This document shows positions 3,920-60,300 of a stretch of 64,000 bases of DNA, piece by piece. The stretch's first letter is position 1, and each line of letters starts with the position of its first letter. Source of the DNA: Kiritimatiellia bacterium. Lineage in GTDB: Bacteria; Verrucomicrobiota; Kiritimatiellia; JAAZAB01. Location: the NCBI GenBank assembly GCA_040767085.1, contig JAXGPF010000005.1, forward strand, positions 32,001 to 96,000. Direction: 5' to 3'. Made by a program: the position numbers and the translations under genes. The notes under the pieces were generated by a model that was not told the origin of the DNA, searched no databases, and saw only the letters and a list, made by a program, of their open reading frames with translations.

Positions 3920-3982
3920 GCTTTCGGAATTCCCGCGGCGGGCAGTTTAAATTTGACCGGCCGGACACATCCCCGAAAAACC

Positions 3983-5368
3983 TGTCGTAAACAAATGACT
4001 TGGCCGCATAATTAACAAATGATTTGTCCGCTTAAAGCTGTCAGGATGGTGCATTCAAAGGGGGGTTATATGGATGAATATCCGAAGGCAGCACTGGAGC
4101 GGGCAATGAAGGTACAGGAAGTGATCTTGCGTGCGATTGAAGGGCGGTTAATGTGGTGGGAGGCGGCGGAGATACTAGGTGTGAGCTACCGGACCATGCG
4201 GCGCTGGAAAGGGCGCTACGAGCGGTATGGTTACGACGGGCTGCTGGATCGTCGGCGGAAGATACCGGGGCCGCGGCGCGTGCCCCTTGCGACGGTGAAG
4301 CAGGTGCTGAGGTTGTACCGAGAAGAATACATGGATTTCAATGTGAGGCATTTTCACGAGAAGCTGCAGGCGGAGCATGGGATCGAGCTCAGTTATCAGT
4401 GGGTCAAGAGCGCCTTGCAGACGGCCGGGTTGGTGGCGAAGGCCCGGAAACGAGGGCCGCATCGGCAGCAGCGGGAACGGCGACCAATGGCGGGGATGAT
4501 GTTGATGGTGGATGGCAGCACCCATGCCTGGTTGCCCCTGCTGGCGGGCCAGAAGCAGGATCTGATCCTGGTGATGGACGATGCCACCAGCGAAGTCTAC
4601 ACGGCCTATCTTGTGCCCCAGGAAGGGACATTAACGGTGATGAAGGGGTTGAAAGAAGTCATTATTAAACATGGGGTTTTCTGCAGTCTGTACACGGATC
4701 GTGGCAGTCATTTCTTTTATACGCCCAAAGAAGGCGGGGCGGTGGACCGGCGTCAATTGACGCAAATTGGACGGGCGTTGCAACAGTTGGGGATCGAACA
4801 TATTCCGAGCTATAGCCCCCAGGGACGTGGGCGAATAGAGCGGATGTTTAAGACCTGGCAAGGGCGCCTGCCGCAGGAATTAAGGCAGGCGGGAATCCGG
4901 ACGATGGCCGAGGCCAACGTCTATATTCAACAACAGTTTCTGCCTTCCTTCAATCGCAACATGAAGGTGAAGGCGCGGGAAACAGGAACGTGTTTCGTGC
5001 CTTGCGGTGAGCAGGATTTGGACAGCATTTTCTGTGTGCAGCATGCGCGAGAGGTTCAAAATGACAATACCGTGGCTGTCGGGAGTCGCCGCTTGCAGAT
5101 TGGACCATCAAAATGGCGTTTCAGCTTCGCCAAGTGCCGGGTTAAAGTCTGCGAGCACCTCGATGGCACGGTGTCCATCCGTTATGGCCCGCATGTGGTT
5201 GGCCGCTACCAAGGACCGTTGAACATTTCGGCGTCGCTGGAGGACGTCGCATAAACTTTTTCCTCCCCCGCGGGGGAGGAAAATCCTCACCCCAGGAGCA
5301 ACAACACACAATAACAAATCGGACAGATCACTTGTTACAAAAAGCGGACACTTGACTTGTTACGAACA
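3983..5368 (+). mobile_element. IS1202-family-like insertion sequence, copy 1 (1386 bp)
   Basis: Ends TGTCGTAAAC.../...GTTACGAACA; 15-bp direct repeat CATCCCCGAAAAACC at 3968-3982 and 5369-5383; same element occurs three times in the window. Confidence 0.93.
4070..5254 (+). CDS. DDE transposase (HTH + integrase core; IS1202/ISNCY-like)
   Basis: N-terminal HTH (EAAEILGVSYRTMRRWK); DDE in MVDGS, YTDRGS and GRIERMF; start after GGGGG SD. Confidence 0.93.
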   Translation: MDEYPKAALERAMKVQEVILRAIEGRLMWWEAAEILGVSYRTMRRWKGRYERYGYDGLLDRRRKIPGPRRVPLATVKQVLRLYREEYMDFNVRHFHEKLQAEHGIELSYQWVKSALQTAGLVAKARKRGPHRQQRERRPMAGMMLMVDGSTHAWLPLLAGQKQDLILVMDDATSEVYTAYLVPQEGTLTVMKGLKEVIIKHGVFCSLYTDRGSHFFYTPKEGGAVDRRQLTQIGRALQQLGIEHIPSYSPQGRGRIERMFKTWQGRLPQELRQAGIRTMAEANVYIQQQFLPSFNRNMKVKARETGTCFVPCGEQDLDSIFCVQHAREVQNDNTVAVGSRRLQIGPSKWRFSFAKCRVKVCEHLDGTVSIRYGPHVVGRYQGPLNISASLEDVA

Positions 5369-5383
5369 CATCCCCGAAAAACC

Positions 5384-5412
5384 TTGCCAACTTCCCGGCA
5401 ATCCGGCATGAT
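5384..5412 (+). promoter_or_regulatory. Putative sigma70 promoter of ClpX-like gene, flush with IS target duplication
   Basis: TTGCCA-17 bp-CATGAT, 43 bp before ATG 5456. Confidence 0.55.
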
Positions 5413-5455
5413 TTAATTTCCATTTGGGAACCGAATAACCGCGCGAACCAGTCTG

Positions 5456-7069: not shown

Positions 7070-7103
7070 TCCGGCGGCGAATCCGGCGCGTCGAACCAGC
7101 CGT

Positions 7104-8531: not shown

Positions 8532-8564
8532 CTCTATCCTTTCTCGTTGGCTACAACCTAAACC

Positions 8565-8580
8565 GCCAATGGCATGCCAG
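8565..8580 (-). promoter_or_regulatory. Possible sigma54 (-24/-12) promoter
   Basis: Minus strand CTGGCATG-CCAT-TGGC with correct GG-N10-GC spacing, 33 bp before the 8531 start. Confidence 0.4.
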
Positions 8581-10438: not shown

Positions 10439-10517
10439 TGTAATCCATCTCCCATGGAAATATTATGCCGGCAATATACGAGTTGTTTACAAAAGCCTGG
10501 CGCAATATGGATTTTTA

Positions 10518-10546: not shown

Positions 10547-10552
10547 ATTTAA

Positions 10553-13539: not shown

Positions 13540-13545
13540 ATTACC

Positions 13546-40787: not shown

Positions 40788-40928
40788 CTTGGCCGTTGGC
40801 AATGGCGCGGCCAGACCCATCAGCCGCTTATCCCGGTACGGCGCTCCCATCCATTAATCTTCTGAGATGGCCGTCTGGCCGGCGCATGACGCCGCCCTGA
40901 TAATTCGTTCCGGCGGCGCATATTTGAT

Positions 40929-42314
40929 TGTTCGTAACAAGTCAAGTGTCCGCTTTTTGTAACAAGTGATCTGTCCGATTTGTTATTGTGTGTTGTTGCT
41001 CCTGGGGTGAGGATTTTCCTCCCCCGCGGGGGAGGAAAAAGTTTATGCGACGTCCTCCAGCGACGCCGAAATGTTCAACGGTCCTTGGTAGCGGCCAACC
41101 ACATGCGGGCCATAACGGATGGACACCGTGCCATCGAGGTGCTCGCAGACTTTAACCCGGCACTTGGCGAAGCTGAAACGCCATTTTGATGGTCCAATCT
41201 GCAAGCGGCGACTCCCGACAGCCACGGTATTGTCATTTTGAACCTCTCGCGCATGCTGCACACAGAAAATGCTGTCCAAATCCTGCTCACCGCAAGGCAC
41301 GAAACACGTTCCTGTTTCCCGCGCCTTCACCTTCATGTTGCGATTGAAGGAAGGCAGAAACTGTTGTTGAATATAGACGTTGGCCTCGGCCATCGTCCGG
41401 ATTCCCGCCTGCCTTAATTCCTGCGGCAGGCGCCCTTGCCAGGTCTTAAACATCCGCTCTATTCGCCCACGTCCCTGGGGGCTATAGCTCGGAATATGTT
41501 CGATCCCCAACTGTTGCAACGCCCGTCCAATTTGCGTCAATTGACGCCGGTCCACCGCCCCGCCTTCTTTGGGCGTATAAAAGAAATGACTGCCACGATC
41601 CGTGTACAGACTGCAGAAAACCCCATGTTTAATAATGACTTCTTTCAACCCCTTCATCACCGTTAATGTCCCTTCCTGGGGCACAAGATAGGCCGTGTAG
41701 ACTTCGCTGGTGGCATCGTCCATCACCAGGATCAGATCCTGCTTCTGGCCCGCCAGCAGGGGCAACCAGGCATGGGTGCTGCCATCCACCATCAACATCA
41801 TCCCCGCCATTGGTCGCCGTTCCCGCTGCTGCCGATGCGGCCCTCGTTTCCGGGCCTTCGCCACCAACCCGGCCGTCTGCAAGGCGCTCTTGACCCACTG
41901 ATAACTGAGCTCGATCCCATGCTCCGCCTGCAGCTTCTCGTGAAAATGCCTCACATTGAAATCCATGTATTCTTCTCGGTACAACCTCAGCACCTGCTTC
42001 ACCGTCGCAAGGGGCACGCGCCGCGGCCCCGGTATCTTCCGCCGACGATCCAGCAGCCCGTCGTAACCATACCGCTCGTAGCGCCCTTTCCAGCGCCGCA
42101 TGGTCCGGTAGCTCACACCTAGTATCTCCGCCGCCTCCCACCACATTAACCGCCCTTCAATCGCACGCAAGATCACTTCCTGTACCTTCATTGCCCGCTC
42201 CAGTGCTGCCTTCGGATATTCATCCATATAACCCCCCTTTGAATGCACCATCCTGACAGCTTTAAGCGGACAAATCATTTGTTAATTATGCGGCCAAGTC
42301 ATTTGTTTACGACA
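40929..42314 (-). mobile_element. IS1202-family-like insertion sequence, copy 2 (1386 bp)
   Basis: Reverse complement of copy 1; direct repeat CGGCGCATATTTGAT at 40914-40928 and 42316-42330, with an unmatched A at 42315. Confidence 0.93.
41043..42227 (-). CDS. DDE transposase (same translation as copy 1)
   Basis: Translation matches 4070-5254. Confidence 0.93.
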   Translation of the reverse strand: MDEYPKAALERAMKVQEVILRAIEGRLMWWEAAEILGVSYRTMRRWKGRYERYGYDGLLDRRRKIPGPRRVPLATVKQVLRLYREEYMDFNVRHFHEKLQAEHGIELSYQWVKSALQTAGLVAKARKRGPHRQQRERRPMAGMMLMVDGSTHAWLPLLAGQKQDLILVMDDATSEVYTAYLVPQEGTLTVMKGLKEVIIKHGVFCSLYTDRGSHFFYTPKEGGAVDRRQLTQIGRALQQLGIEHIPSYSPQGRGRIERMFKTWQGRLPQELRQAGIRTMAEANVYIQQQFLPSFNRNMKVKARETGTCFVPCGEQDLDSIFCVQHAREVQNDNTVAVGSRRLQIGPSKWRFSFAKCRVKVCEHLDGTVSIRYGPHVVGRYQGPLNISASLEDVA

Positions 42315-42330
42315 ACGGCGCATATTTGAT

Positions 42331-42359
42331 TTGCGCGGGTATCGGGATTTTGTTAACGT
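42331..42359 (+). promoter_or_regulatory. Putative sigma70 promoter of purL operon, flush with IS target duplication
   Basis: TTGCGC-17 bp-TAACGT with extended TGn, 37 bp before ATG 42397. Confidence 0.55.
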
Positions 42360-42396
42360 GCGAGGCTGTTTTGATGAACCTTCAAACAGCCCGACC

Positions 42397-46852: not shown

Positions 46853-47621
46853 ACGCATCATCCCCTGCCTGGACGTCCGGAACGGCCGGGTGACCAAGGG
46901 CGTTAAATTCCAGGACAACATCGCCCTGGGCGATCCGGTGGAAATGGCGGCCGCTTACAGCGCCAACGGATGCGATGAACTGGTGTTTTACGACATCGCC
47001 GCCTCCGCCGAAAGCCGGCCGATCGACCTGGCCATGGTCCAGTCAGTCGCGCGCGCCATCCGGATTCCGTTTGCCGTCGGCGGCGGCGTCGGCGGCCTAG
47101 CCGATATGGAAGCCGTGCTGCAAGCCGGCGCGGAAAAAATTTCCGTCAACTCGCTGGCGGTGCGCTGCCCCCGGATCATCGCCGAAGGCGCGCGCGCCTT
47201 CGGCGCGCAATGCATCGTGCTGGGCATGGACCCCGTCAGCGCGCCTGGCGACCCGCGGTTTCCCAGCGGCTATGAAATCACCATCCGCGGCTGCCGCGAG
47301 CGCACGGGGCTGGATGCCTTGGAATGGGCTAAACGCGCGGCCGGCCTGGGCGCGGGCGAGATTGTCGTCAATTCCGTGGATGCCGACGGCACGCGCGCCG
47401 GGTATGAATTACGCCTGACCCGCATGATCGCCGATGCGGTGGACGTGCCGGTGGTGGCCTCCGGCGGCGCCGGCCGGCCGGAACATCTAGCGGCCGCGTT
47501 CCGCGAGGGTGGCGCAGACGCGGCCATCATTGCCGGCATCCTGCATACGGGCGCATACACCATTGCCAGCATCAAGCAGGCATTGGCGGCCGACGGCATC
47601 CCCGTCCGTCAAAAATGGTGA
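46842..47621 (+). CDS. hisF: Imidazole glycerol phosphate synthase subunit HisF
   Basis: MLTKRIIPCLDV, DELVFYDI, DADGT, VASGGAG. Confidence 0.96.
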   Translation: MLTKRIIPCLDVRNGRVTKGVKFQDNIALGDPVEMAAAYSANGCDELVFYDIAASAESRPIDLAMVQSVARAIRIPFAVGGGVGGLADMEAVLQAGAEKISVNSLAVRCPRIIAEGARAFGAQCIVLGMDPVSAPGDPRFPSGYEITIRGCRERTGLDALEWAKRAAGLGAGEIVVNSVDADGTRAGYELRLTRMIADAVDVPVVASGGAGRPEHLAAAFREGGADAAIIAGILHTGAYTIASIKQALAADGIPVRQKW

Positions 47622-47745
47622 ATCCAGAACTATTAACAGGGTTCGGTTCCTGAGTAGCGCCGCGCCATGGCGCTATGACAGCAGACACCAATGCCCGATT
47701 GTTGATGTACTCGCCTTCACAGCCCGCCGCCCCAACAGATTGTGA

Positions 47746-47774
47746 TTGCATAAGATGCAGCTACTTGATATGGT
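47746..47774 (+). promoter_or_regulatory. Putative sigma70 promoter of smc
   Basis: TTGCAT-17 bp-TATGGT. Confidence 0.55.
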
Positions 47775-47846
47775 ATGTTTCAGGTTAAGCCGGAACCCGC
47801 TGTCAGGCGGGCGCGGTGTTTAAAATTTCTACCGGAGCATGGCGCA

Positions 47847-50800
47847 GTGTACCTAAAAGCTTTGGAATTGGTTGGGTTTAAAAGTTTTGCAAATCGGACC
47901 CGTCTGGACTTCAATCCTGGTATGACGGCGATTGTCGGGCCGAATGGCTGCGGCAAAAGCAATGTTTCCGACGCGGTCCGCTGGGTGTTGGGTGAGCAGA
48001 GCGCCAAGCTGCTGCGCGGCGCGAAGATGGAAGACTGCATCTTCAACGGCACGGATAACCGCAAACCGCTGGGCATGGCGGAAGTCAGCCTGGTCCTGGC
48101 GGACTGCGAGCAGACGCTGGGCACGGAGTTCAACGAGGTCACCGTCACCCGCCGCGTCTTCCGTTCCGGCGAGGGCCAGTATTTCATTAATAAAACACCC
48201 TGCCGCCTGCGGGATATCCAACGCCTGTTCATGGACACGGGCATCGGGACCAGTTCCTACTCGCTCATGGAACAGGGCCGCATTGACCTGATCCTGAGTT
48301 CCCGGCCGGAAGACCGGCGCGAGGTTTTCGAGGAAGCCAGCGGCATCACCAAGTTCAAGTCCGACAAACGCGAAGCCCTGCGCAAGCTGGAGCAGACGGA
48401 AGCCAACCTGCTGCGCCTGGCCGATATCATCAAGGAGGTGCGCCGGCAAATCATCTCCTTGCAGCGCCAGGCCGGCAAGGCGGCGCGTTACAAGAAGCAC
48501 CAGGAGGAATTGCGCCGGCTGGATATTTTCGTCGCGCGTGAAAAGCTGAAAAGCATGGACGTCGAACGCACCGAAAACGAACGGCGGCTGGAATCCATCC
48601 GGCGGGAACTGGCCCAACGCCAGGAATCCATCCGGCAGCATGAGAGCCTGGGCGCCTCCCTGCGCGAACGCTTGGAAGCGGCCGAAGATGAAGCCGGCGG
48701 CGCCCAGCAGGCGTTGCTGGAATTGACCCGGCAGCGCGACCGCGCGCGCCAGGTGATTGAGCACAGCGAACGCCGCATCCAGGAACTCGAAGCGCAATGC
48801 GCGCGCGATGCCGCCGACACCGCCGGCGCCGGCGGGGAGCTGGATCAAACCCGGAAGGAACTGGAAGAATCCCAGCAGCGGCTGGCGGCGGCGGAAGGCG
48901 AATTTGCGGCCGCCCAAGCCGAATTGCAGGCGCAAGCCCAGAAACTGGCCGGCCACGAAAAACTGATCGCCGCCGCCAAGCAGGCCGTCACGCGCCTGCT
49001 GTCCGAATCCATGGAATTGGAAAACCGCCTGGCCCAGATTCAGAACGAGCTGCACAAACTTGAAAACGAAGACCGCAACATCGCCAGCCGCCGCGAACGC
49101 TGCGCCGCCGAGCAGGAAAACCTTAAATTGCTGCTCAGCGGACACCAGAAACGCGTCGCGGAATTGAAGCAAATCCGCGCCGAATCGCAAGCCGTCCAGG
49201 CCCAGGCCGCCCAAGCCCTGGCGGCCAAGCAGACGGAAATCACCGCCAGCCAGAACCGGCTCCGCCAGTCGGAACAGGCGCTCGCTGAATTGCGCGCCGA
49301 GCGCGCCGCCGCGGCGGCGCGCCTGGAAATACTGGACCGCAATCTCAAGACCAAAAGCGGATTTTCACAAAGCGCCCGGCGGCTGCTGGATGCCAAAATT
49401 GCGGACGACCTGCAGCCGAAAGTGCTGGGCGCCCTGGCCAGCCAGATTGAAGCCGCCCCGGAATACCGGCTGGCCCTGGAGACGGCGTTGCGCGCCTGGC
49501 TGGACGCCGTCGTCGTACAAGATATGCCGGCCGCCCTGGCGTGCCTCCGCGAAGTCGAGCCGGAAACCAAGGATGCCCTCCGCTTGCTGGCGGCGGCGGC
49601 CCCGGCACCGGCGGCGGCAGCACCGGAAGTTTTGCCGGCGGGCGCCGTCATGCTGCGCCCGCAGGTGCAAGCCCCGGCGGCCTTGGCCCCGCTGCTGGAC
49701 CGCTTATTGGCCGGGGTGGTGGTGGTGGACGACCTGGCCGCGCTGCCTCCGGACATCCCCCCCGCCGCCATCTACGTCACCCGGCAGGGCGTCTTGGTGC
49801 GCGGCGACGGCCGCCTGGAAATTCACCGCGGCGGCGCCCAGCAATCCAGCCCGCTGGCCAACAAACACCTCCTGGCCAAGCAGCGCGAACTGTTGGCCGG
49901 CGCGGACGCCCAACTGGCCGCGCGCCAGCAGGAGCGGGACGCCGGCGCCGCGCGTTGCCAGGCCTTGGAAAAGGAAGTGCAGGAACTGCGCGCCGCGCTC
50001 GCGGAAAAACAGCAGATCCAGGCCCGCCAGGAAGGCGAATTCCAACTGGTGGAGAAACAGGCGGATCAGGTCCGGCAGAACCTGGAAACCGTGGCCTGGG
50101 AGACGCGCGAACTGGAAAAACAGAGCAGTTCCGCCGATGCCAAAAGCGCCTTGATCGAGGAAACCGACCGCATCCGCGAACGCCGGCAGGAAATCCGCCG
50201 GCAGATCGAAGCCAACCAGCAGGAACAGGAGCGGCTCGAGCAGGCCCACCGCCAGCTTGCCGCCGCGGTTACCGCCGCCCAGGTGCGCTTCGCCAAGCAG
50301 GAAGAAGCCCGCGCTTTCATCCGCGCCCGGCGCCAGCCCTTGGCCGAACGGGCGCAGCAGCTGCAGAAAACCATTGACGAACGCCAGGCGCGCCAGACGG
50401 CCTGCCGCGGCGAAATCGCCGGCGTACGCCAGGCCATGCTCCAGGCGCAGACGGAATTGCCGCGGCTGGAGGAAGACATCCGGCAGCGCACCGCGCGCTT
50501 GGAGGATATTCAAAACCAGCGCGAACAGATGCATGCCGCCGCCAGGACCGCCGATGGGCAACTGCAGCAACTGCGCGCGGAGGCGGACACTCTCAGCCGG
50601 CAGGAAAGCGAGACTAACGGCAAATGCGTGGAACAACGCATGCAGCGCCAGTACCTGCTCGAACGCGTCACCGGCGAATACCGCATCTCCGCCGACGCCA
50701 TCCAGGTCGAGCCGGAGCCGGAATGGCCGGACCAGCAGCGCCCGGAGATGGAAAGCCTGGAACTCGCCATCGCCGAACTGCGCGCCAAGCTGGAAAGCAT

Positions 50801-51488
50801 GGGGCCGGTGAACACCGACGCCATCGCCGAATACAAGGAGCAGGAAGAACGCTACCAGTTCCTCAACAGCCAGCAGGATGATTTGCTCAAATCCAAGCAA
50901 CAACTGCTGGAAATGATCAAGACCATCAATCAGACCACCACCGAAATGTTTGCCAAGACCTTTGCCACGGTCAACGACAATTTCCAGGCAATGTTCAAGC
51001 AATTATTCGGCGGCGGCTCGGCCAAACTGATGTTGACCGACGACGAGGACATTCTCGAGTGCGGCATTGAAATCATCGCCCGGCCGCCCGGCAAGAAACT
51101 TCAAAGCGTCTCCCTGCTGTCCGGCGGCGAGCGCACCATGACCGCGGTTGCATTGTTGTTCGCGATTTTCATGGTCAAGCCCAGCCCATTCTGCGTGCTC
51201 GACGAACTGGATGCGGCGCTGGATGAATCCAATATCCACCGCTTCATCAAGGTGCTGCAAGGATTTGTCGCCCAATCGCAGTTCATCGTCATCACCCACA
51301 ACCGCGCCACCATCAGCGCCGCCAACGTGCTCTACGGCGTCACCATGGCCGAAACGGGCATCTCGAAAATCGTCTCCATGCGTTTTGTGGACCACTCCGG
51401 CAAGCTGGAGCCGGCGGAAACACCGGAGGGCCGGAACGGCGAGCCGGCCGCCGCCCAAGCGGAGCCAGCCGGGGCCGGCGGCCAGTAA
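47847..51488 (+). CDS. smc: Chromosome partition protein Smc
   Basis: GFKSFA, GPNGCGKSN, coiled coils, hinge, LSGGE, LDELDAALD, ITHN; GTG start inferred. Confidence 0.96.
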   Translation: MYLKALELVGFKSFANRTRLDFNPGMTAIVGPNGCGKSNVSDAVRWVLGEQSAKLLRGAKMEDCIFNGTDNRKPLGMAEVSLVLADCEQTLGTEFNEVTVTRRVFRSGEGQYFINKTPCRLRDIQRLFMDTGIGTSSYSLMEQGRIDLILSSRPEDRREVFEEASGITKFKSDKREALRKLEQTEANLLRLADIIKEVRRQIISLQRQAGKAARYKKHQEELRRLDIFVAREKLKSMDVERTENERRLESIRRELAQRQESIRQHESLGASLRERLEAAEDEAGGAQQALLELTRQRDRARQVIEHSERRIQELEAQCARDAADTAGAGGELDQTRKELEESQQRLAAAEGEFAAAQAELQAQAQKLAGHEKLIAAAKQAVTRLLSESMELENRLAQIQNELHKLENEDRNIASRRERCAAEQENLKLLLSGHQKRVAELKQIRAESQAVQAQAAQALAAKQTEITASQNRLRQSEQALAELRAERAAAAARLEILDRNLKTKSGFSQSARRLLDAKIADDLQPKVLGALASQIEAAPEYRLALETALRAWLDAVVVQDMPAALACLREVEPETKDALRLLAAAAPAPAAAAPEVLPAGAVMLRPQVQAPAALAPLLDRLLAGVVVVDDLAALPPDIPPAAIYVTRQGVLVRGDGRLEIHRGGAQQSSPLANKHLLAKQRELLAGADAQLAARQQERDAGAARCQALEKEVQELRAALAEKQQIQARQEGEFQLVEKQADQVRQNLETVAWETRELEKQSSSADAKSALIEETDRIRERRQEIRRQIEANQQEQERLEQAHRQLAAAVTAAQVRFAKQEEARAFIRARRQPLAERAQQLQKTIDERQARQTACRGEIAGVRQAMLQAQTELPRLEEDIRQRTARLEDIQNQREQMHAAARTADGQLQQLRAEADTLSRQESETNGKCVEQRMQRQYLLERVTGEYRISADAIQVEPEPEWPDQQRPEMESLELAIAELRAKLESMGPVNTDAIAEYKEQEERYQFLNSQQDDLLKSKQQLLEMIKTINQTTTEMFAKTFATVNDNFQAMFKQLFGGGSAKLMLTDDEDILECGIEIIARPPGKKLQSVSLLSGGERTMTAVALLFAIFMVKPSPFCVLDELDAALDESNIHRFIKVLQGFVAQSQFIVITHNRATISAANVLYGVTMAETGISKIVSMRFVDHSGKLEPAETPEGRNGEPAAAQAEPAGAGGQ

Positions 51489-51533
51489 GATCGGGGGGGG
51501 GACCGGCGGCGGCGGCCGCGCATGCGGCAGGTT

Positions 51534-52640
51534 TCAGGCGCCCTGTTGGCGCAGGACTTTTTCCAGGGCCCGGAGGCATTTTTCATTCTCCGGACGGGTG
51601 CCCAGGCTGATCCGCACGTGCCGGGGCAACTGGTACCCGTTTAACGGGCGGACGATGACATGCTCCTGCTGCATGGCCTGGAAGACCGCGCGGGCGTCGC
51701 CCACGTCCACCATGATAAAATTGGCGACCGGCGGCACATAGCGCAATCCCAGGCGGTCCAAGCCCGCCGTCATGAACGGCAGTTCCGAGCGCACCAGTTC
51801 CTGGAATCGCCGCACATGTTCGTCGTCGTCCAAGGCGGCCAACGCCGCCTCCAGGGCCAGTCCATTGACGTTAAACGGCTGGCGGATTTGATGCATCAGA
51901 CGGATGCCCTGCTCCGCCGAGACGCCGTAGCCGACGCGCAGCCCCGCCAGGCCATGGCTCTTGGCGAACGTGCGCAGCAGGATCACCCGGCGGCCATCGC
52001 GGATGTAGCGCAGGGCATCCGGCCGGCGCTCCGGCGGGATCAAATCAATGTAAGCTTCATCCAGGCAAGCTACTACGTGCGGCGGCAGGCGGTCCATGAA
52101 TCGGTCCAAATCCGCGCCCGCCACCATGGTGCCCGTCGGATTATTGGGATTGGAAATGAAGATCACCTTGGTGCGCGGCGTGACCGCCCGCAGCATGGCG
52201 TCCAGGTCATGCGTGTAATCGGCCATCGGCACGGCCGTCACCCGGGCCTGGAACATCCCGGCGATCAGGCGATAGATGGCAAATGCGCGGTCCGCCACCA
52301 CCACCTCGTCGCCCGGCTCCAGGTAAACATGGCCGATGAATTCCAGGATTTCGTTGCTGCCGTTGGCGACGATCAATTGCTCCGGGCTTATCCCCAGTTT
52401 ACGCGCCAGCGCCCGGCGCAGATAAAACGCGCTGCCATCCGGGTAATAATGCATGCGGGCGGCCGCCGCCCGCACCGCCGCCATCGCCTTGGGAGAAGGG
52501 CCGAGCGGATTTTCATTCGAGGCCAGCTTGACGATGGAGGAGGCATCGGGCAAGCCCAGTTCCCGCGCCAGCTCCTCCACCGGCCGGCCCGGCTCGTAAA
52601 CACCCAGTTGCTGCAACCATTGTTTGGCGATCTTTTGCAT
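51534..52640 (-). CDS. hisC: Histidinol-phosphate aminotransferase
   Basis: KLASNENPLG, NPNNPTG, DEAY, RTFAKSHGLAGLRVGY. Confidence 0.94.
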   Translation of the reverse strand: MQKIAKQWLQQLGVYEPGRPVEELARELGLPDASSIVKLASNENPLGPSPKAMAAVRAAAARMHYYPDGSAFYLRRALARKLGISPEQLIVANGSNEILEFIGHVYLEPGDEVVVADRAFAIYRLIAGMFQARVTAVPMADYTHDLDAMLRAVTPRTKVIFISNPNNPTGTMVAGADLDRFMDRLPPHVVACLDEAYIDLIPPERRPDALRYIRDGRRVILLRTFAKSHGLAGLRVGYGVSAEQGIRLMHQIRQPFNVNGLALEAALAALDDDEHVRRFQELVRSELPFMTAGLDRLGLRYVPPVANFIMVDVGDARAVFQAMQQEHVIVRPLNGYQLPRHVRISLGTRPENEKCLRALEKVLRQQGA

Positions 52641-52818
52641 GCGCGCTGCTTTCCCTTGGATTATGCATGTAATTCCAAAACTCGCGTTTTGGAGGTTTAA
52701 AGATTTCACCCCGGCTCGGCCGGGGGACATCCCCGCAAAAAAGGAACGGATAAACTACACCATTGGACGCGAAATCACAATTATATTTGTCCGCGCCGGG
52801 GCAAGCCTGGCGGCCATT

Positions 52819-54093
52819 TTATTCCCGCACCTGGCCGGCGCCGGCCACCACGTATTTGTACGTGGTCAATTCCTCCAGCCCCATCGGGCCGCGGGCATGC
52901 AGCTTGTCCGTGCTGATGCCGATTTCCGCGCCCATGCCGAACTCCCCGCCATCGGTGAACCGGGTGGAGGCGTTGACATAGACGGCGGCGGAATCCACCT
53001 CGCGGGTGAACAGGGCGGCCGCGCGGCGGCTGCGCGTGACAATGGCGTCGGAATGCCGCGAGCCGTATTGGTTGATGTGGTCAATCGCCTCCCGCGCGGA
53101 CGCCACCACGCGCACCGCCAGCACCAGGTCCAGGTATTCGGCATACCAGTCGGTTTCGTCCGCCGGCGCGATGTCCGGCGCCAGCCGGCGCGCGGCGTCA
53201 TCCCCGCGCAGTTCCACGCCGCGCTCTCTCAGCCGCGCGGCGGCGCGGGGAACGAAGGCTGCCGCGATGTCCTGGTGCACCAGCAGGGTTTCCATGGCGT
53301 TGCAGACGCCCGGGCGCTGGCACTTGGCATTTTCGACGATTTGCAGCGCCATGTCCGGGTCGGCGGACGCATCCACGAAGACATGGCAGACGCCCTTGTA
53401 ATGCTTGATCACCGGCACGCGCGCCAGCTCGGTGACCGCGCGGATCAGCGCCTCGCCGCCGCGGGGTATCACCACGTCCACCAGGCCTTCGAGCTGGACC
53501 AGTTCGCGCACCGCGGCGCGGTCGGAAGTATCCACCAGTTGGATGGCATGTTCGGGCAACCCCAGCGGCCGGCCGCCGTCCAGCATGGCCTTGACCAGCG
53601 CGGCGCTGGAACGCAGCGATTCATGGCCGCCGCGGAGGATCACGGCATTGCCGGTCTTGAAACACAAGGCGGCCGCGTCGGCAGTGACATTGGGACGCGA
53701 TTCGTAAATGATGGCGATCACGCCGATCGGCACGCGGATTTTCGATATTTTCAAGCCGTTGGGCCGGGTCCAGCGCCGGATGGATTTGCCCAGCGGATTC
53801 GGCAGCGCCGCCACCGTCCGGATGCCCTCGCTGATGCCCTGGAGCCGCTTTTCATCCAGGCGCAGCCGGTCCAGCATGGCGGCGGAAAGCCCGTTGCGCC
53901 GGCCGGCATCCATGTCGGCGGCATTGGCGGACAGGATGTCCGCACGGCTGTCAGCGATGCCGCCGGCCATGGCGGAGAGGATGGCATCCTGCCGCCGCGG
54001 CGTCAGCCGCGCCAGTGCGCGCGAAGCTGCCAGCGCGTTGCGGCCCATGGCGGTGATGATGGTCTTGATATCCTGTACAGTGTCGGTGTTCAT
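52819..54093 (-). CDS. proA: Gamma-glutamyl phosphate reductase
   Basis: IYESRPNVT, IPRGG, GVCNAMETLL, NASTRFTDG, STDKLHARGPMG. Confidence 0.97.
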   Translation of the reverse strand: MNTDTVQDIKTIITAMGRNALAASRALARLTPRRQDAILSAMAGGIADSRADILSANAADMDAGRRNGLSAAMLDRLRLDEKRLQGISEGIRTVAALPNPLGKSIRRWTRPNGLKISKIRVPIGVIAIIYESRPNVTADAAALCFKTGNAVILRGGHESLRSSAALVKAMLDGGRPLGLPEHAIQLVDTSDRAAVRELVQLEGLVDVVIPRGGEALIRAVTELARVPVIKHYKGVCHVFVDASADPDMALQIVENAKCQRPGVCNAMETLLVHQDIAAAFVPRAAARLRERGVELRGDDAARRLAPDIAPADETDWYAEYLDLVLAVRVVASAREAIDHINQYGSRHSDAIVTRSRRAAALFTREVDSAAVYVNASTRFTDGGEFGMGAEIGISTDKLHARGPMGLEELTTYKYVVAGAGQVRE

Positions 54094-54105
54094 GGCTAAA
54101 CCTCG

Positions 54106-55356
54106 TTATGCATATTCCGCCGCCGTCTCCGCGGCCACCCGGGCCCACTCCCAAAGCCGCTGCGGCTGGTGGCCGACCGTGCTGATATCCTTGAGGATTA
54201 TTTCTACGGGGCACTCGCGCACGCGGTCGAGCACGCGGCGCAGATCGGCGCGCACGGCATCCGGGTTCCAATCCGGCGCGGCTACCAGGGCCGGATTGGC
54301 CTTATGGGAAAACACAAAATCCCGGCCGATATTATCCGCCGCCCGGTCGAGATCGATCCACGGACTCATGGAAATTGTGCGGAGCCTGGGAATCTTGCGC
54401 AGAATGTGCACCTTGTCGTGCAGCGGCTCGCAGCAGCCGTAATACACCAGGCCGAACCGTTTGAGGAATTTCAACTCGTATTGCAGCGCGAATTCATCGT
54501 GCATTTCCGGGGAAACGCTGGAAAATATCTGCGACATGGTGCGGCCCCACATGTCGCAGGGGCGCACGCGGCCGGGGACGTAACCCGGCGCGGGCAATTC
54601 GTCGCAGTAGCCGTAGCCGCCGCCGAGGTAGGTGTTGTCGTTGTTCAAGTCGAGCAGATTCAGCGCTTCGTACTGGTTGAACATGGCCAGGAAAGCGTCG
54701 GTCATGCGCCCGATCAGCCGGTGGACGTAGTCCGGACGCTCGTACATGTCTACCAGGATTTCCTCGACGCCGGTCAGGCGCACCAGGTAATCCCAGGGGG
54801 CGATGGAGGTTCCCTTGATGCCGGTCCGGCGCACCGGAATGACGCCTTCAAAAATTTCCGCCAGCAGGCGGAAGCGGGCGGCGGTGGTTTCCGGGTCATA
54901 CGTAATGACCGGATCCTTGATCTTGTCAATGTCGCGCTCGTCCCTGATCTGGATGTTGAAAGTGCGCGAGACAACGTCGCTGGCCGGATCGGTGCGTTCG
55001 ATGGAAACATCCTCTTTGATGCCGAATCCGGTGTTGCGGATCACCGGCGGGCAGGCAATGTAATCCTCCACCACCATGTCGCCCGGCATGTGCCGCCACT
55101 GGTAGATGGTGCGCCGCAGTCTGGTTTCCAGCCCCTGGAGGAACTTGTCGCCGGCGATCGTCGCGGCCAGTTCGCCATTGTATTCCATTTCATGCCATGG
55201 AATTTCAAAGATGAACACCGGCGGCCGCCCTCGCCGCAGCGCGTTGTTCCGACGCCACAAATCGCGCCGGATATTGTTGACCGGATCGTTGGCGATCTCG
55301 TGAAGCTGCCGCCCTAATTCACGGAGTGTTTGCCGGGCCTGGTCGTTCTGCTGCAT
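54106..55356 (-). CDS. Hypothetical protein, uroporphyrinogen-decarboxylase-like barrel
   Basis: ILVDMYERPDYVH, VSPEMHDEFAL, YYGCCEPLH, ISMSPW. Confidence 0.7.
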   Translation of the reverse strand: MQQNDQARQTLRELGRQLHEIANDPVNNIRRDLWRRNNALRRGRPPVFIFEIPWHEMEYNGELAATIAGDKFLQGLETRLRRTIYQWRHMPGDMVVEDYIACPPVIRNTGFGIKEDVSIERTDPASDVVSRTFNIQIRDERDIDKIKDPVITYDPETTAARFRLLAEIFEGVIPVRRTGIKGTSIAPWDYLVRLTGVEEILVDMYERPDYVHRLIGRMTDAFLAMFNQYEALNLLDLNNDNTYLGGGYGYCDELPAPGYVPGRVRPCDMWGRTMSQIFSSVSPEMHDEFALQYELKFLKRFGLVYYGCCEPLHDKVHILRKIPRLRTISMSPWIDLDRAADNIGRDFVFSHKANPALVAAPDWNPDAVRADLRRVLDRVRECPVEIILKDISTVGHQPQRLWEWARVAAETAAEYA

Positions 55357-55567
55357 ACGCCGCGCCGGCCCCGCGCAGTTGCCGCGGCAGCCGGCCCTCC
55401 TTTTTGATTTTCCAGTAATTCCGCGGAATCTCGTGCCCAAAACCATATCAAAAAAGATTCCAAAAGCGAGCCATGTTTTACGGCGGGAGCGTTTTAACAT
55501 GCCGCTTCACCCAGCCATTCATCCAGCCAGCGCGCTTTTTCACAGTCCATGGCTTCGCGGCGGCTTC

Positions 55568-56410
55568 TTACCATTCAACCTTGACGACAAAATCCTTCTC
55601 CGCCGACGCGCCCAGTCCTGGTGCTGACAATATGCCTTTACCAGCATCATACTTCCATCCCGTCATGGGCTGTCCGTTAACCATCACCGATTCTGGTTTG
55701 GCACAATGCACCAGCAATTGCCAACACCGGCGTTCCGACATACCGTCGTGGCCCTGGCGCGGCGCGACCGTCAGCGTCAGCACTTCTTTGCGTGGCGATT
55801 CCGAGCCGCGGCCAGCGCCCGCCTGCATGTCATTTTCAGACAGACCCGCGGATGCAGGCGATAAAGCCTGATGGATGTTTGTGGTCGCTATGGCCCCATT
55901 GCGCCAGGCTTCCGTCTCGCCATCATCCTCGTATAACACAAACGGCCCGGCGCGATTGCCGGGAAAGATTTCCAGTTCCAGCGTTTCCCGGGATTTATGT
56001 CCAAAATATTCCATGGCCGGCGCCCGGGGAATAATTGCTCCGGCGCGCGCGAACAGCACGCCGCCCCGGCCTTCCGGGGATTTTGCGGGGATATCCGCCG
56101 GGCCGTGCAGGCTTTCGCCGGTCCAGTAATCGAACCAGGCGCCGGCCGTTCCGGCAAATGCTTCGGCAATCAATTGCATTGCGCAAAGATCGAGCCGATC
56201 CGTCACGCCGGGCAAATGGCTGGCCGGGGCCAATTGCTCGACCTGCTTTAACAGGATTTCCATCAAGGGGGAAACGACGATCGTGCGGCACACCGGCTCG
56301 TCCATGACGGGGAAGGCGCGCCGGAACGCCGGCAGGAGCGCGCGGTCATAGGCGAAATAGAAGCCCTCGGCCATCCCGGTCGTGCCGGCGTCGTAAACTT
56401 TCCCGGGCAC
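55568..56410 (-). pseudogene. Chimeric remnant: AraC-like N-terminal fragment fused to GH31-type C-terminal beta domains
   Basis: First ~85 aa resemble an AraC sensor/dimerisation region; remainder WFDYWTG...LFARAGAIIP...LYEDDGET is the typical GH31 tail, without a catalytic domain. Confidence 0.6.
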
Positions 56411-56611
56411 ATTTACCGTTCAGATACGGAACGCGCACCCGGTATCCAAGCGGACATGCAAACATATTCCGGCCCCCCCCGCCGGCCATGCGCAATAAAA
56501 CACACAAAAAAGCAAAATATTCCCATTGCAATCCATGGTTGAAAATCTAACATGACGGCTAATCGAATTTCTCTGCGGATCATGCTTCCTGATGAAAGCC
56601 GGCGTCCCGCC

Positions 56612-57913
56612 ATGAATCCAAAACCAGGTCGGCCAAGCATGCAACTCCAGGACATTGCCGGTAGACTGAGTGAATCCGTGAATCCCGCGGCTCTGGCGCC
56701 GCACTGGGCTGACACGCTGGCCGTTGACGGCAGCCGGCCGCCGGACTTCCTGCGGGCGGCGACGATCGTGGCACTCCGCCAGGCGTCCGGTCTGCCTCCG
56801 GCGGCTGATGCGCCGCTGCTGGCAACCGCCCGGCGCATCGCCGGGAATCCGGACTTGCGCCTGCTGGCGCGGCATTGTCACCGCCTGCTTTACGAGCATG
56901 CGGATTACAACCGGTTCAGCGCCTGGCCCTCGTTCCAAACCGCGCTGGGGGAAAATGCCGGCGTTTTTTACCTGCTGATCCTCCTGGCGGCGGCCCCGCT
57001 GATCCGGACGCAACACCGCCGGCGGAACATCCCGGAGGAAATTACCCGCGCTACCTGCGACAGGCGGGATGCGGTCGAACGTTACCGCGCCACCCATCAG
57101 GGCCGATGGGGCGCCGATCGCCGCAGTCTGTATTGGACCAGGTTTTACACTAACGGCGACTTGTACCGCCTGGGCCGCATGGAATACATGCTGCGCCGAT
57201 TCAAAGGGCTGGTCGAAGTTTACCGCCACGCGCGGACCGGCGCAACCGTCGCATTCGCGCCCGACGGCGCGCTGTATGATGCACAGGGACTGGCGGTGAA
57301 ACCCGCGGACGGCGCCGCCCCTCCGCCCGGAACCTGGACCGCCAGGCTGACGATTGCCGGCGGTCACATACAAGGGCACCCGATCCTGCCGGAAGGCGCC
57401 GCCATGCCGCGTCAAATCCGCCTGCCGGCCGAAGCCTGGCGGCGCGCCCTGGGCAAGGACGACTGGACCATGGACATGCACATTCCGCCCGGCGGCGGCA
57501 TGATCCTGGAAATTTGCAGGGCCTCCATGCGCCAGGCGGCGGATTTTTTCCCGCGCTATTTTCCCGACCGGCCGGCGGCATCCATCACCTGCGCCTCCTG
57601 GATTTTCAATACGCAATTGGACGGCATCTTCGCCCCGGAAGCCAATTTAGTGCGCTTCCAACGCGAACTGTACCTGTACCCCGTTCCCTCCACCGGCCGG
57701 GATGGGCTGGTGTTCATCTTCGGCCAGGACGATCCCCGGCCGGATACCGCGCCGCGCGAAACGCGCCTGCAGCGGGCCATCCTGGACTTCCTGGCGCAGG
57801 GCAACCGGTGGCGCAATGGCGGCATGTTTTTTTTGGCGGCGGATTTGCCCCATTTCGGGCAAAGCTGGTACCGCGGCCCGGGGCGCGCCGCGGAATTGCA
57901 GGGATTGCTTTAA
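56612..57913 (+). CDS. Acyltransferase-domain protein (GNAT-like C-terminal domain)
   Basis: YRLGRMEY, MDMHIPPGG, CRASMRQAADFFPRYFP, CASWIF, TRLQRA; start codon uncertain (56552/56612/56639). Confidence 0.72.
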   Translation: MNPKPGRPSMQLQDIAGRLSESVNPAALAPHWADTLAVDGSRPPDFLRAATIVALRQASGLPPAADAPLLATARRIAGNPDLRLLARHCHRLLYEHADYNRFSAWPSFQTALGENAGVFYLLILLAAAPLIRTQHRRRNIPEEITRATCDRRDAVERYRATHQGRWGADRRSLYWTRFYTNGDLYRLGRMEYMLRRFKGLVEVYRHARTGATVAFAPDGALYDAQGLAVKPADGAAPPPGTWTARLTIAGGHIQGHPILPEGAAMPRQIRLPAEAWRRALGKDDWTMDMHIPPGGGMILEICRASMRQAADFFPRYFPDRPAASITCASWIFNTQLDGIFAPEANLVRFQRELYLYPVPSTGRDGLVFIFGQDDPRPDTAPRETRLQRAILDFLAQGNRWRNGGMFFLAADLPHFGQSWYRGPGRAAELQGLL

Positions 57914-57952
57914 GTCCAGGCCTGAGCCGGCGGCTGCGCGCCGGCGGCGCGG

Positions 57953-58807
57953 CTACACGCGGAGCATGCCGGGCGGATACCCGAAATGCTTGCGGAAAAC
58001 TTTGACGAAATAACGGCTGTCATGGTATCCCGCCGCGCGCGCGGCCTCCTCCACGTTGACCGCGCCGTGGCTCAGCATGGTTTTTGCCTGCGTCATGCGC
58101 ACTTTGGTCAGGAACGACATCAGGGAACAACGCATTTCGGCGCGGAAGATATGCGATAGATAATAACCGCTGACGCCCAGCGCCCGCGCCACATGGCTCA
58201 GTGTCAGGGGGTCGCGGTAATGCGTGCTGATATAAACCCGCGCGCGCTGCACCAGGATGCGTTTCCGCAAGCTTTCGCCGCGCGCCTCGGGTTTGGCGCC
58301 GCTGCCCCAATCCAGGCTGTCCCGGGCCATGACCTGCAGCAGGGTCAGGAGCCGGGACTGCGCCACCCGCAGGTCGGGGGGGCGGCCCCATGCCAGGTCG
58401 CCCTGCATGGATTCGATCAGGGCCGCCGCTTCGCACCGACCGCGCGCGGAGCGGATTTTACAGGGAACCGGCGCCAGGGCCGCCAGGAAGGATTTGCCGA
58501 CCGGCCAGGCGAAACCGATTTCAAAGACTTCCAGCCCCTTGACGCAGTCAAACTGGTCGCGATGCGCCAGTGAGCCGGGGATCAGGATCGTATCGCCGGG
58601 CTTGAGGCGCGTGCGGCTCCGCCGGGTGATCACGCAATTCTCGCCGTGAAACACATGCAGCAGTTCGTAGTTGTCGGCGCTGGCCCCGCCATGCATGGCG
58701 CGCGCGGAAATCGGCCCAAAACGCATCCGGCACATCATCCGGATTTCCGGCAGACCATCCACCTGCTGCCAGGCGGCCGTCAATGCTTGGCGTTTTGAAA
58801 TATTCAC
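57953..58807 (-). CDS. AraC-family transcriptional regulator
   Basis: Cupin-like N-domain; HTHs LTLSHVARALGVSGYYLSHIF and GYHDSRYFVKVFRKHFGYPP. Confidence 0.92.
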   Translation of the reverse strand: MNISKRQALTAAWQQVDGLPEIRMMCRMRFGPISARAMHGGASADNYELLHVFHGENCVITRRSRTRLKPGDTILIPGSLAHRDQFDCVKGLEVFEIGFAWPVGKSFLAALAPVPCKIRSARGRCEAAALIESMQGDLAWGRPPDLRVAQSRLLTLLQVMARDSLDWGSGAKPEARGESLRKRILVQRARVYISTHYRDPLTLSHVARALGVSGYYLSHIFRAEMRCSLMSFLTKVRMTQAKTMLSHGAVNVEEAARAAGYHDSRYFVKVFRKHFGYPPGMLRV

Positions 58808-58858
58808 CCATCCCCTATGCTAAATTCCGCGCTAAAGATCAAGTTATTTCTGACCGCC

Positions 58859-60244
58859 TGTCGTAAACAAATGACTTGGCCGCATAATTAACAAATGATT
58901 TGTCCGCTTAAAGCTGTCAGGATGGTGCATTCAAAGGGGGGTTATATGGATGAATATCCGAAGGCAGCACTGGAGCGGGCAATGAAGGTACAGGAAGTGA
59001 TCTTGCGTGCGATTGAAGGGCGGTTAATGTGGTGGGAGGCGGCGGAGATACTAGGTGTGAGCTACCGGACCATGCGGCGCTGGAAAGGGCGCTACGAGCG
59101 GTATGGTTACGACGGGCTGCTGGATCGTCGGCGGAAGATACCGGGGCCGCGGCGCGTGCCCCTTGCGACGGTGAAGCAGGTGCTGAGGTTGTACCGAGAA
59201 GAATACATGGATTTCAATGTGAGGCATTTTCACGAGAAGCTGCAGGCGGAGCATGGGATCGAGCTCAGTTATCAGTGGGTCAAGAGCGCCTTGCAGACGG
59301 CCGGGTTGGTGGCGAAGGCCCGGAAACGAGGGCCGCATCGGCAGCAGCGGGAACGGCGACCAATGGCGGGGATGATGTTGATGGTGGATGGCAGCACCCA
59401 TGCCTGGTTGCCCCTGCTGGCGGGCCAGAAGCAGGATCTGATCCTGGTGATGGACGATGCCACCAGCGAAGTCTACACGGCCTATCTTGTGCCCCAGGAA
59501 GGGACATTAACGGTGATGAAGGGGTTGAAAGAAGTCATTATTAAACATGGGGTTTTCTGCAGTCTGTACACGGATCGTGGCAGTCATTTCTTTTATACGC
59601 CCAAAGAAGGCGGGGCGGTGGACCGGCGTCAATTGACGCAAATTGGACGGGCGTTGCAACAGTTGGGGATCGAACATATTCCGAGCTATAGCCCCCAGGG
59701 ACGTGGGCGAATAGAGCGGATGTTTAAGACCTGGCAAGGGCGCCTGCCGCAGGAATTAAGGCAGGCGGGAATCCGGACGATGGCCGAGGCCAACGTCTAT
59801 ATTCAACAACAGTTTCTGCCTTCCTTCAATCGCAACATGAAGGTGAAGGCGCGGGAAACAGGAACGTGTTTCGTGCCTTGCGGTGAGCAGGATTTGGACA
59901 GCATTTTCTGTGTGCAGCATGCGCGAGAGGTTCAAAATGACAATACCGTGGCTGTCGGGAGTCGCCGCTTGCAGATTGGACCATCAAAATGGCGTTTCAG
60001 CTTCGCCAAGTGCCGGGTTAAAGTCTGCGAGCACCTCGATGGCACGGTGTCCATCCGTTATGGCCCGCATGTGGTTGGCCGCTACCAAGGACCGTTGAAC
60101 ATTTCGGCGTCGCTGGAGGACGTCGCATAAACTTTTTCCTCCCCCGCGGGGGAGGAAAATCCTCACCCCAGGAGCAACAACACACAATAACAAATCGGAC
60201 AGATCACTTGTTACAAAAAGCGGACACTTGACTTGTTACGAACA
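58859..60244 (+). mobile_element. IS1202-family-like insertion sequence, copy 3 (1386 bp)
   Basis: Same element as copy 1; 16-bp direct repeat GTTATTTCTGACCGCC at 58843-58858 and 60245-60260. Confidence 0.93.
58946..60130 (+). CDS. DDE transposase (same translation as copy 1)
   Basis: Translation matches 4070-5254. Confidence 0.93.
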   Translation: MDEYPKAALERAMKVQEVILRAIEGRLMWWEAAEILGVSYRTMRRWKGRYERYGYDGLLDRRRKIPGPRRVPLATVKQVLRLYREEYMDFNVRHFHEKLQAEHGIELSYQWVKSALQTAGLVAKARKRGPHRQQRERRPMAGMMLMVDGSTHAWLPLLAGQKQDLILVMDDATSEVYTAYLVPQEGTLTVMKGLKEVIIKHGVFCSLYTDRGSHFFYTPKEGGAVDRRQLTQIGRALQQLGIEHIPSYSPQGRGRIERMFKTWQGRLPQELRQAGIRTMAEANVYIQQQFLPSFNRNMKVKARETGTCFVPCGEQDLDSIFCVQHAREVQNDNTVAVGSRRLQIGPSKWRFSFAKCRVKVCEHLDGTVSIRYGPHVVGRYQGPLNISASLEDVA

Positions 60245-60271
60245 GTTATTTCTGACCGCCTCGCAAAACCC

Positions 60272-60300
60272 TTGCCCGCTCCCGATCGGTTTGTTATAAG
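60272..60300 (+). promoter_or_regulatory. Putative sigma70 promoter of 60345 gene
   Basis: TTGCCC-17 bp-TATAAG with extended TGn. Confidence 0.5.

Follow-up and report, generated by a model that had tools for sequence, protein, structure and literature searches.

Evidence that an IS1202-family insertion sequence is aimed at the upstream edge of sigma70-type promoters

Insertion beside the -35 element

What decides where an insertion sequence (IS) lands in a bacterial genome? The stretch analysed here (the window: 64,000 nucleotides of a Kiritimatiellia bacterium, assembly GCA_040767085.1, contig JAXGPF010000005.1, positions 32,001 to 96,000) carries three identical copies of a 1386-bp element of the IS1202 family. 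Together with the remaining copies in the genome, the empty sites of sister species and related elements in other phyla, they strongly support the view that the element is directed to the upstream border of the -35 in sigma70-type promoters, leaving the core promoter intact and duplicating the UP-element zone. The orientation of the element is almost fixed: its left inverted repeat (IRL), not its right one (IRR), adjoins the promoter, the transposase gene points away from the promoter, and the promoter fires away from the element.

This targeting had been proposed in a sequence-only reading of the window, which noted that each of the three target duplications directly adjoins a promoter-like TTG hexamer. 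It predicted that sites aligned on the duplication edge would show TTG at +1..+3 and TAnnnT near +24..+29, and asked for a genome-wide extraction of copies, a reconstruction of empty sites and a comparison with other intergenic positions. On re-reading the sequence, the three junctions, the duplications and the adjoining hexamers are as it described (Table 1), as is a second promoter-like pair, TTGCCC-17-TATAAG, 11 bp past the other repeat of copy 3. The duplication of copy 2 is perfect over 15 bp and reaches 16 bp with one mismatch, at the base beside the tip.

A blastn search of the whole assembly (4.08 Mb, 28 contigs) yields 31 full-length copies. Of these, 28 are 100% identical, and the other three stand at 99.6, 98.6 and 95.3% identity; a further fragment of 58 bp lies where a contig ends. 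Perfect duplications flank 22 copies, being 16 bp long in 14, 15 bp in 6 and 17 bp in 2. All copies were oriented with the transposase gene reading left to right and their flanks read outward, a strict hit being a TTG that starts 15-17 nt from the tip. Such a TTG is present in 27 of 31 independent IRL flanks (at 16 nt in 18, 15 nt in 6 and 17 nt in 3) and in 2 of 31 IRR flanks (Fisher 7e-11); measured against the TTG frequency of the genome, the IRL count has a binomial probability of 5e-32. Thus, the rule extends to the whole genome. The four misses on the IRL side are copy 1 of the window, with its TTG on the IRR side instead; a copy on contig C27, with TTGACA 16 nt past a 15-nt partial duplication of its IRL; the decayed 95% copy, with TTGACA at 21 nt; and the 98.6% copy, with no TTG. 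What did not hold as a rule is the earlier notion that either IS end can face the promoter. This apparent freedom is an accident of the three window copies, as copy 1 is the only one in the genome whose IRR side faces a promoter.

Five of the 31 copies have flanks that do not match each other (C1 10278, C2 142526, C2 198441, C22 477351 and C25 263800). The IRR flank of the C1 copy matches up with the IRL flank found where contig C12 begins, and its IRL flank is identical to that at C28 105706. Such flanks would be expected if identical copies had recombined, or if the assembly had taken alternative paths.

Is the shared feature a TTG or a promoter? Aligned on the TTG, 29 sites of this genome yield TTG-(A/C)-C-(A/T), followed after about 14 nt by T21 G22 n T24 A25 (A/T)26, with A or C at position 4 in 27 sites, T21 in 16, G22 in 17, T24 in 19, A25 in 23 and A or T at position 26 in 26. 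TGnTA at a spacer of 16-18 is present at 16 of these 29 occupied sites as compared with 1.3% of 22,836 intergenic TTG. Given the hexamer TTG(A/C)C(A/T), TA stands within 1 nt of the right place at 14 of 15 occupied sites and at 22% of 1,525 unoccupied intergenic ones (P 8e-9), which is the excess of -10 elements that the comparison with other intergenic positions was meant to reveal. Within the duplicated segment itself, positions -9 to -4 (counted from the TTG) are mildly enriched in A/T, and there is almost no other information. The flank thus reads as a whole promoter, with a -35, a spacer of about 17 bp and often an extended -10, and not as a TTG alone.

The gene context, scored with a crude home-made gene caller, fits this reading. 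None of the 31 copies lies inside a called gene, so the intergenic placement seen in the window holds throughout. The IRL-side neighbour reads away from the element in 28 of 31 cases, and in 25 of 31 it starts within 300 nt downstream, as compared with 35% of unoccupied intergenic TTGMCW hexamers (P 3e-7; M, A or C; W, A or T). Of the 31 downstream genes 20 were scanned, and Pfam domains of unrelated functions were found in 19; among the genes are those for PEPCK, transketolase, glutamate dehydrogenase (GDH), purL, NAD synthase and an aminotransferase, along with IclR and AraC regulators, a sigma54 activator and a pseudopilin. The idea that the occupied promoters form one regulon was rejected, the 20 scanned genes being functionally unrelated.

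The promoters can also be seen in their uninterrupted state. Four genomes of the same genus lack the element, and each of the four sites followed up (purL, PEPCK, transketolase and GDH) is intact in one to three of them. Every empty site holds the duplicated segment only once, flush with conserved -35/-10 blocks, and sequence conservation fades within or just upstream of this segment; therefore, the element has landed at the upstream edge of the conserved promoter block.

Does the rule hold for related elements? Species-representative genomes were scanned for encoded relatives; 552 were confirmed and 79 loci were kept, at 56-66% identity, mostly from metagenome-assembled genomes (MAGs) of Acidobacteriota, with single loci from Verrucomicrobiota, Kiritimatiellae and others. 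A promoter-blind script located ends and duplications (15-18 bp) in 55 of the 79, which were aligned on the duplication edge alone. On the IRL side the first positions are T1 in 50, T2 in 46, G3 in 52 and A or C at position 4 in 46, then C and A; in the region +24 to +29, T24 is found in 26, A25 in 38 and T29 in 40. TTG stands at the duplication edge on the IRL side in 43 of 55 loci and on the IRR side in 2. The pattern predicted from the window thus returns in other genomes, where the putative promoter logo is the textbook sigma70 one, with A-11 and T-7 as the strongest positions of the -10. Among the 24 loci with no detectable duplication, 20 have a readable IRL flank, with TTG at 15-18 nt in 13 of the 20, and several of the remaining readable ones have a phased -10.

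A complete Acidobacteriaceae chromosome carries 25 copies of a 1453-bp relative, of which 24 were analysed. Duplications of 16-17 bp are present in 23 of the 24, TTG adjoins the edge in 13 on the IRL side and in none on the IRR side, and A25 with T29 occurs in 16 of 24 IRL flanks as compared with 1 of 24 IRR flanks. When sites from other genomes are pooled, 22 of 75 unique sites lack the TTG, and 12 of these 22 keep A25 and T29 exactly where a 17-bp spacer predicts them, as compared with 2 of 75 in the IRR-side control (P 7e-8). Likewise, sites with just 2-3 matches to TTGACA have a -10 in 17 of 22 cases, and weak -35 hexamers are accompanied by the TG of an extended -10 in 9 of 24 cases versus 2 of 30 (P 0.007, the grouping being post hoc). 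Because the -10 stays in phase at sites that lack the TTG, it would be the whole promoter that is read.

Closer relatives were found on metagenome contigs. Those at 93% and 87% identity have TTGACA 16 nt and TTGATC 15 nt away, respectively. Of the 10 metagenome loci, two have script-found duplications, one of which (L166) adjoins TTGACA and the other (L172), with weak repeats, no TTG; inspected by eye, the IRL flanks of loci L167 and L169 have TTG at 15 and 18 nt. In two Acidobacteriota MAGs, copies stand head to tail one duplication length apart: at locus L035 the IRR tip of another copy directly follows the IRL-side duplication, and at L082 an IRL tip directly follows the IRR-side duplication. 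Such arrangements are consistent with repeated hits on one promoter.

A second IS1202-like element of this genome, of about 1453 bp and in four copies (Table 1), follows the same rule reversed, with its IRR side facing the promoter. Its transposase (393 aa) is 24% identical to the first and has NF033594 as its best family match, at 156.7 bits, which is under the cut-off. Duplications of 16 bp flank 4 of 4 copies, and the IRR-side duplication adjoins a TTG plus -10 in 3 of 3 informative ones. Three relatives of this second element in other genomes of the class (41-54% identity) have a TTG plus -10 16 bp past the IRR tip, their duplications being unconfirmed. On contig C25 of this genome (263800-266670), the remaining copy of the second element and a copy of the first are placed tail to tail, their IRR ends exactly 16 bp apart, and the first element's own duplication does not match. 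Two elements may have hit one promoter there and later have recombined, the latter step being suggested by this mismatch.

The element and its transposase

What kind of element is this? Each window copy has imperfect terminal inverted repeats that start with TGT, and a single open frame. IRL starts with TGTCGTAAAC and has the inner motif TTGGCCGC; IRR starts with TGTTCGTAAC and has the inner motif GTGTCCGC. The 5'-TGT termini and a second conserved block near position 20 are those of the IS1202 family, and relatives show the same pattern. The transposase matches NCBIfam NF033594 (transpos_ISNCY_2) at 352.7 bits (cut-off 250), the runner-up model being that of IS481 at 113.6 bits, under its own cut-off. 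With the TGT termini and the duplications of 15-17 bp, this match supports the family to which the element had been assigned from its sequence: it is an active IS of the IS1202 family with one DDE transposase gene. Because of its 15-17 bp duplications together with these transposase features, we place it, as a probable member, in the ISTde1 subgroup.

The Pfam domains of the transposase are HTH_28, HTH_32 and LZ_Tnp_IS481, with helix-turn-helix domains at the N-terminus, and in an alignment of 17 sequences D148, D170-D171, D210, E257 and Q264 are invariant. IS1202-family transposases are described as carrying an additional conserved DD, located between the first and the second catalytic D, and a Q at position +7 from the catalytic E (Siguier et al., 10.1101/2022.12.17.520857). 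The transposase has this D..DD..D..E..Q(+7) pattern, from which a catalytic role of these residues would follow, and their positions suit the RNase H-like fold of the predicted model. In the AlphaFold2 (AF2) model (mean pLDDT 76.7), an RNase H-like core is preceded by two helix-turn-helix domains for DNA binding and followed by a beta domain at the C-terminus. The fold most resembles that of IstA of IS21 (Foldseek E 5e-13) and then those of TnsB, MuA and retroviral integrases, enzymes that pick their targets via partner or host proteins.

Homologues number at least 7,999 proteins at E <= 1e-20. In a collection of plasmids, tblastn matched 4,862 records, all below 60% identity and nearly all at about 30% (ISKpn21/ISEsa1 type), with one at 46%; plasmid genes matched at 30-33% identity carry annotations such as IS1202-like, ISNCY and ISKpn21.

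The ends of the element themselves hold promoter-like parts: IRR carries an outward TTGACT 11 bp from the tip, and IRL an inward TAAACA at positions 6-11 (5344-5368 and 3983-4007 in copy 1, respectively). A circle junction with abutted ends would hold TTGACT-16-TAAACA as a junction promoter, fitting the copy-out-paste-in scheme that has been discussed for the IS1202 family (Siguier et al., 10.1101/2022.12.17.520857; PMC10132070).

Copy 2 was also followed in metagenome data, in four runs from four studies. The read depth of the IS is about 10-25x that of its flanks, junction contigs were found, and loose ends at the tips lead to insertion sites known from the assembly. An empty allele was not seen in these four runs, none of their contigs skipping the IS. 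In the genomic copy at C27:143650 and, in one of the runs, in copy 2 (window 42299), the tip of IRL is duplicated in tandem over 15 nt. Among RNA runs, none was found to contain window positions 42250-43250.

Table 1. Features of the window and of the second IS1202-like element (window coordinates unless a contig, C, is named)
Feature	Position	Strand	Remarks
Target duplication of copy 1, IRL side, 15 bp	3968..3982		
IS copy 1, 1386 bp	3983..5368	+	IRL 3983-4007, IRR 5344-5368
Transposase gene of copy 1, 394 aa	4070..5254	+	ATG at 4070; open frame from 4019
Target duplication of copy 1, IRR side, 15 bp	5369..5383		
Promoter-like TTGCCA-17-CATGAT	5384..5412	+	adjoins duplication; upstream of AAA_2 (Clp-like) ATPase gene
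Target duplication of copy 2, IRR side, 16 bp (15 identical)	40913..40928		
IS copy 2	40929..42314	-	IRL at 42314
Target duplication of copy 2, IRL side	42315..42330		first base unlike other duplicate and sister species
Promoter-like TTGCGC-17-TAACGT of purL	42331..42359	+	TG before -10; conserved, uninterrupted in two same-genus genomes
Promoter-like TTGATC-17-CATAGG	58842-58814	-	adjoins duplication; upstream of AraC-family gene
Target duplication of copy 3, IRL side, 16 bp	58843..58858		
IS copy 3	58859..60244	+	IRL at 58859
Target duplication of copy 3, IRR side, 16 bp	60245..60260		
Second element, four copies	C2:~84800-86260; C22:~592600-594050; C24:289995-291447; C25:265202-266654		outside window
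Target hexamers of second element			TTGACT-16-TATGCT; TTGTGA-17-TAGGCT; TTGACT-16-TAGTAT; IRR side

How the promoter could guide insertion

What can be discerned from these sites about the mechanism? Both parts of the promoter appear to fix the insertion point jointly, with trade-offs like those of the polymerase and an anchor where sigma region 4 would sit, and guidance by RNA polymerase and its sigma factor is the likeliest mechanism. In this scenario, the transposase would dock on the promoter-bound RNA polymerase holoenzyme, most likely beside sigma region 4 on the -35; alternatively, the docking cue could be the DNA distortion that the holoenzyme creates at the promoter. The position of insertion would then depend on the -35/-10 pair in the form in which the polymerase recognises it. 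The sites themselves show one strand transfer precisely on the upstream border of the -35 hexamer of a housekeeping (sigma70-type) promoter and the other 15-17 bp farther upstream, and the core promoter remains with the gene, along with a copy of the -36 to -51 segment. Such a site would be a safe harbour: it lies between genes, expression of the gene would continue, and further hits on the promoter would remain possible. Docking on the holoenzyme, or on its distortion, is what we lean towards, by a small measure. Duplication lengths of 5-6, 15-17 and 27-28 bp are described for the IS1202 family (Siguier et al., 10.1101/2022.12.17.520857); these differ by about one helical turn, and one common edge of a site occupied by protein may perhaps anchor all three.

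Could the transposase instead read the -35 hexamer and the -10 region itself, as duplex DNA and independently of the polymerase? Its two N-terminal helix-turn-helix domains would suit this, as would the very high conservation of the TTG and the form of the -10 in this genome, where the conserved part, TGnTA(A/T), is readable as duplex and the -7 T is not conserved. However, targets in other hosts give the canonical sigma70 logo, dominated in its -10 by A-11 and T-7, which sigma reads as flipped-out single-stranded bases. A direct reader would have to copy sigma's preferences, including these two bases, and holoenzyme docking is favoured for this reason. Further arguments against direct reading are that weak -35 hexamers are offset by an extended -10, as in polymerase binding; that a 24% identical transposase has the same bipartite target in the opposite orientation; and that the -10 part of the logo varies between hosts even though the transposases are 57-66% identical. 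We therefore consider direct reading unlikely.

A structural property of promoter DNA, such as an intrinsic bend, easy melting or an A/T-rich UP zone, could also serve as the guide, with no bound protein and no reading of bases. Many transposases favour bent targets, and the A/T enrichment inside the duplicated segment points in this direction. However, this segment is almost devoid of further information, and base-pair precision at the TTG edge with a phased A25 and T29 is unlike a diffuse property, which makes a purely structural guide very unlikely.

Another rival is recognition of a -35-like hexamer only, the link to a -10 and to a gene then arising by selection or because most intergenic TTGACA are promoters. 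TTG is indeed the strongest signal and all copies are intergenic, yet of the 1,525 unoccupied TTG(A/C)C(A/T) hexamers only 22% have the TA and 35% the gene, as compared with 14 of 15 and 25 of 31 of the occupied sites, and of the 22 sites in other genomes that lack the TTG (of 75), 12 have the phased -10. Selection, moreover, has had little time, as 28 copies are identical. Thus, neither chance nor the hexamer with subsequent selection explains the pattern, and we regard this possibility as highly improbable. Least probable is target mimicry, in which the domain that binds the inner repeat motif, some 18-25 nt from the tip (TTGGCCGC and GTGTCCGC here, ATGTCCGG in Acidobacteriota relatives), would also bind a similar target motif at equal distance from the cut: the inner motif has T-G-n-C in common with the target TTG and, like it, is found about 16-18 nt from the tip, but position 1 of the target is T in 50 of 55 sites where the repeats of those elements have A, position 4 is A or C in 46 of 55 where the repeats have T or G, and the phased -10 is left unexplained.

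Several observations weigh against guidance by the polymerase, or against the flanks being ordinary promoters. The contact between transposase and polymerase is itself something that we infer, and a complex prediction of the transposase with sigma region 4 (residues 38-120; score 0.00, mark 0.32) speaks neither for nor against binding. At the sites of relatives, TTG is conserved to 84-95%, above the level usual for promoters in general, so that the transposase may to some extent read the -35 directly. Of the sigma70 pattern, the sites in this genome have the -35, the spacer and TGnTA(A/T), with the -7 T of the -10 at only 3 of 18 occupied sites, as compared with 297 of 610 unoccupied TTG-N20-TA upstream of genes (P 0.008) and 118 of 192 unoccupied TTG(A/C)C sites; conversely, the TG of an extended -10 (-15/-14) is present at 11 of 18 occupied sites as compared with 11% of unoccupied promoter-like sites. 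This pattern was noticed post hoc and is not seen in the sites of other genomes, yet the shortage of the -7 T is odd if ordinary active promoters are the target. Possibilities are that only promoters with an extended -10 tolerate the loss of upstream DNA, that closed complexes are preferred, or that the shortage is due to chance.

Also on this side of the balance, a strict consensus promoter scan of window positions 40500-60400 did not call the purL and araC sites, and found 3 sites in 19.9 kb where 5.7 are expected by chance. Many sites in this genome lie between divergent genes, the IRR-side neighbour also reading away in 18 of 31 cases. On the Acidobacteriaceae chromosome, a crude test based on open reading frames (ORFs) and Pfam showed no asymmetry of genes, outward ORFs being present at 13 versus 14 of 24 sites, and outward ORFs with a Pfam match at 7 of 24 on the IRL side and 8 of 24 on the IRR side. 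Finally, neither copies that share a genome nor loci from related MAGs sample the preference of a transposase in a fully independent way.

Comparison with known systems

Bacterial IS are usually thought to land almost randomly or at short motifs, with a few guided to dif, REP or attTn7. While the IS family and targeted transposition as such are already known, the class of target and the likely guide are new. Full-text literature searches, with subscription journals outside their coverage, found no report of promoter targeting by the IS1202 family or by any bacterial IS, and no bacterial counterpart of promoter-tethered integration at sigma70 promoters. Landing with base-pair precision on the upstream border of promoters, and in more than one phylum, would amount to a novel mode of target choice, and would explain how so abundant a group of IS can multiply, to about 30 copies here and 25 in the Acidobacteriaceae chromosome, without destroying genes. 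The copies would mark promoters in uncultured bacteria for which transcript data are lacking. As the insertions sever promoters from upstream regulatory sites, they may also rewire regulation, and if the polymerase is indeed the guide, the element would constitute a natural protein-guided integration system.

The nearest known elements are those of the ISTde1 subgroup, which share the single DDE transposase of about 394-450 aa, the TGT termini, the block near position 20 and the 15-17 bp duplications (Siguier et al., 10.1101/2022.12.17.520857; PMC10132070). They are widespread outside Proteobacteria, and copies that lack duplications are put down there to recombination between copies. The passages of these papers that deal with the subgroup give no target rule for it, targeting being stated only for the subgroup with 5-6 bp duplications; here, in contrast, the duplication adjoins the -35 of a promoter and the orientation is almost fixed. 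The targeting subgroup, that of ISAba32 and ISAjo2 (the 'dif-site hunters'), offers the closest parallel in behaviour, as its members keep a fixed short distance from a site to which host proteins bind and always turn IRL towards it (10.1101/2022.12.17.520857; PMC10132070); in the relevant passages the cue, protein or DNA, is left open. They differ in that their target is the XerC arm of dif/pdif and their duplication 5-6 bp long, as compared with a promoter -35, 15-17 bp and hundreds of potential sites per genome here. Since IRL always faces the XerC arm in that subgroup, orientation-specific docking beside a protein-bound site may, by analogy, be a trait of the IS1202 family as a whole.

A related catalytic fold and insertion at a fixed distance from a recognised protein-DNA complex are also found in Tn7 at attTn7 (TnsD) and in IS21, Mu and CAST (IstB, MuB and TnsC, respectively). 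These systems encode target-selector proteins of their own, whereas the present element encodes a transposase alone, and therefore any selector would have to be a host protein. For such host-guided integration, eukaryotic retroelements provide the precedent. In Ty3 and Ty1 of yeast, Tf1 of fission yeast and murine leukemia virus (MLV), whose integrase works with BET proteins, a tether links the integrase to the transcription machinery or to factors bound at promoters, and insertions fall just upstream of genes. The likeness lies in insertion on the promoter side, sparing the coding sequence; the difference, in that those elements are eukaryotic and use Pol III factors, Sap1 or BET proteins. 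Whether the parallel extends to the mechanism we regard as an evenly poised matter: the holoenzyme at the promoter, with sigma region 4 on the -35, could be the target selector of this IS and thus the bacterial counterpart of Pol III in Ty3 integration, shared by a large, widespread branch of the IS1202 family and used by at least two lineages in opposite orientations.

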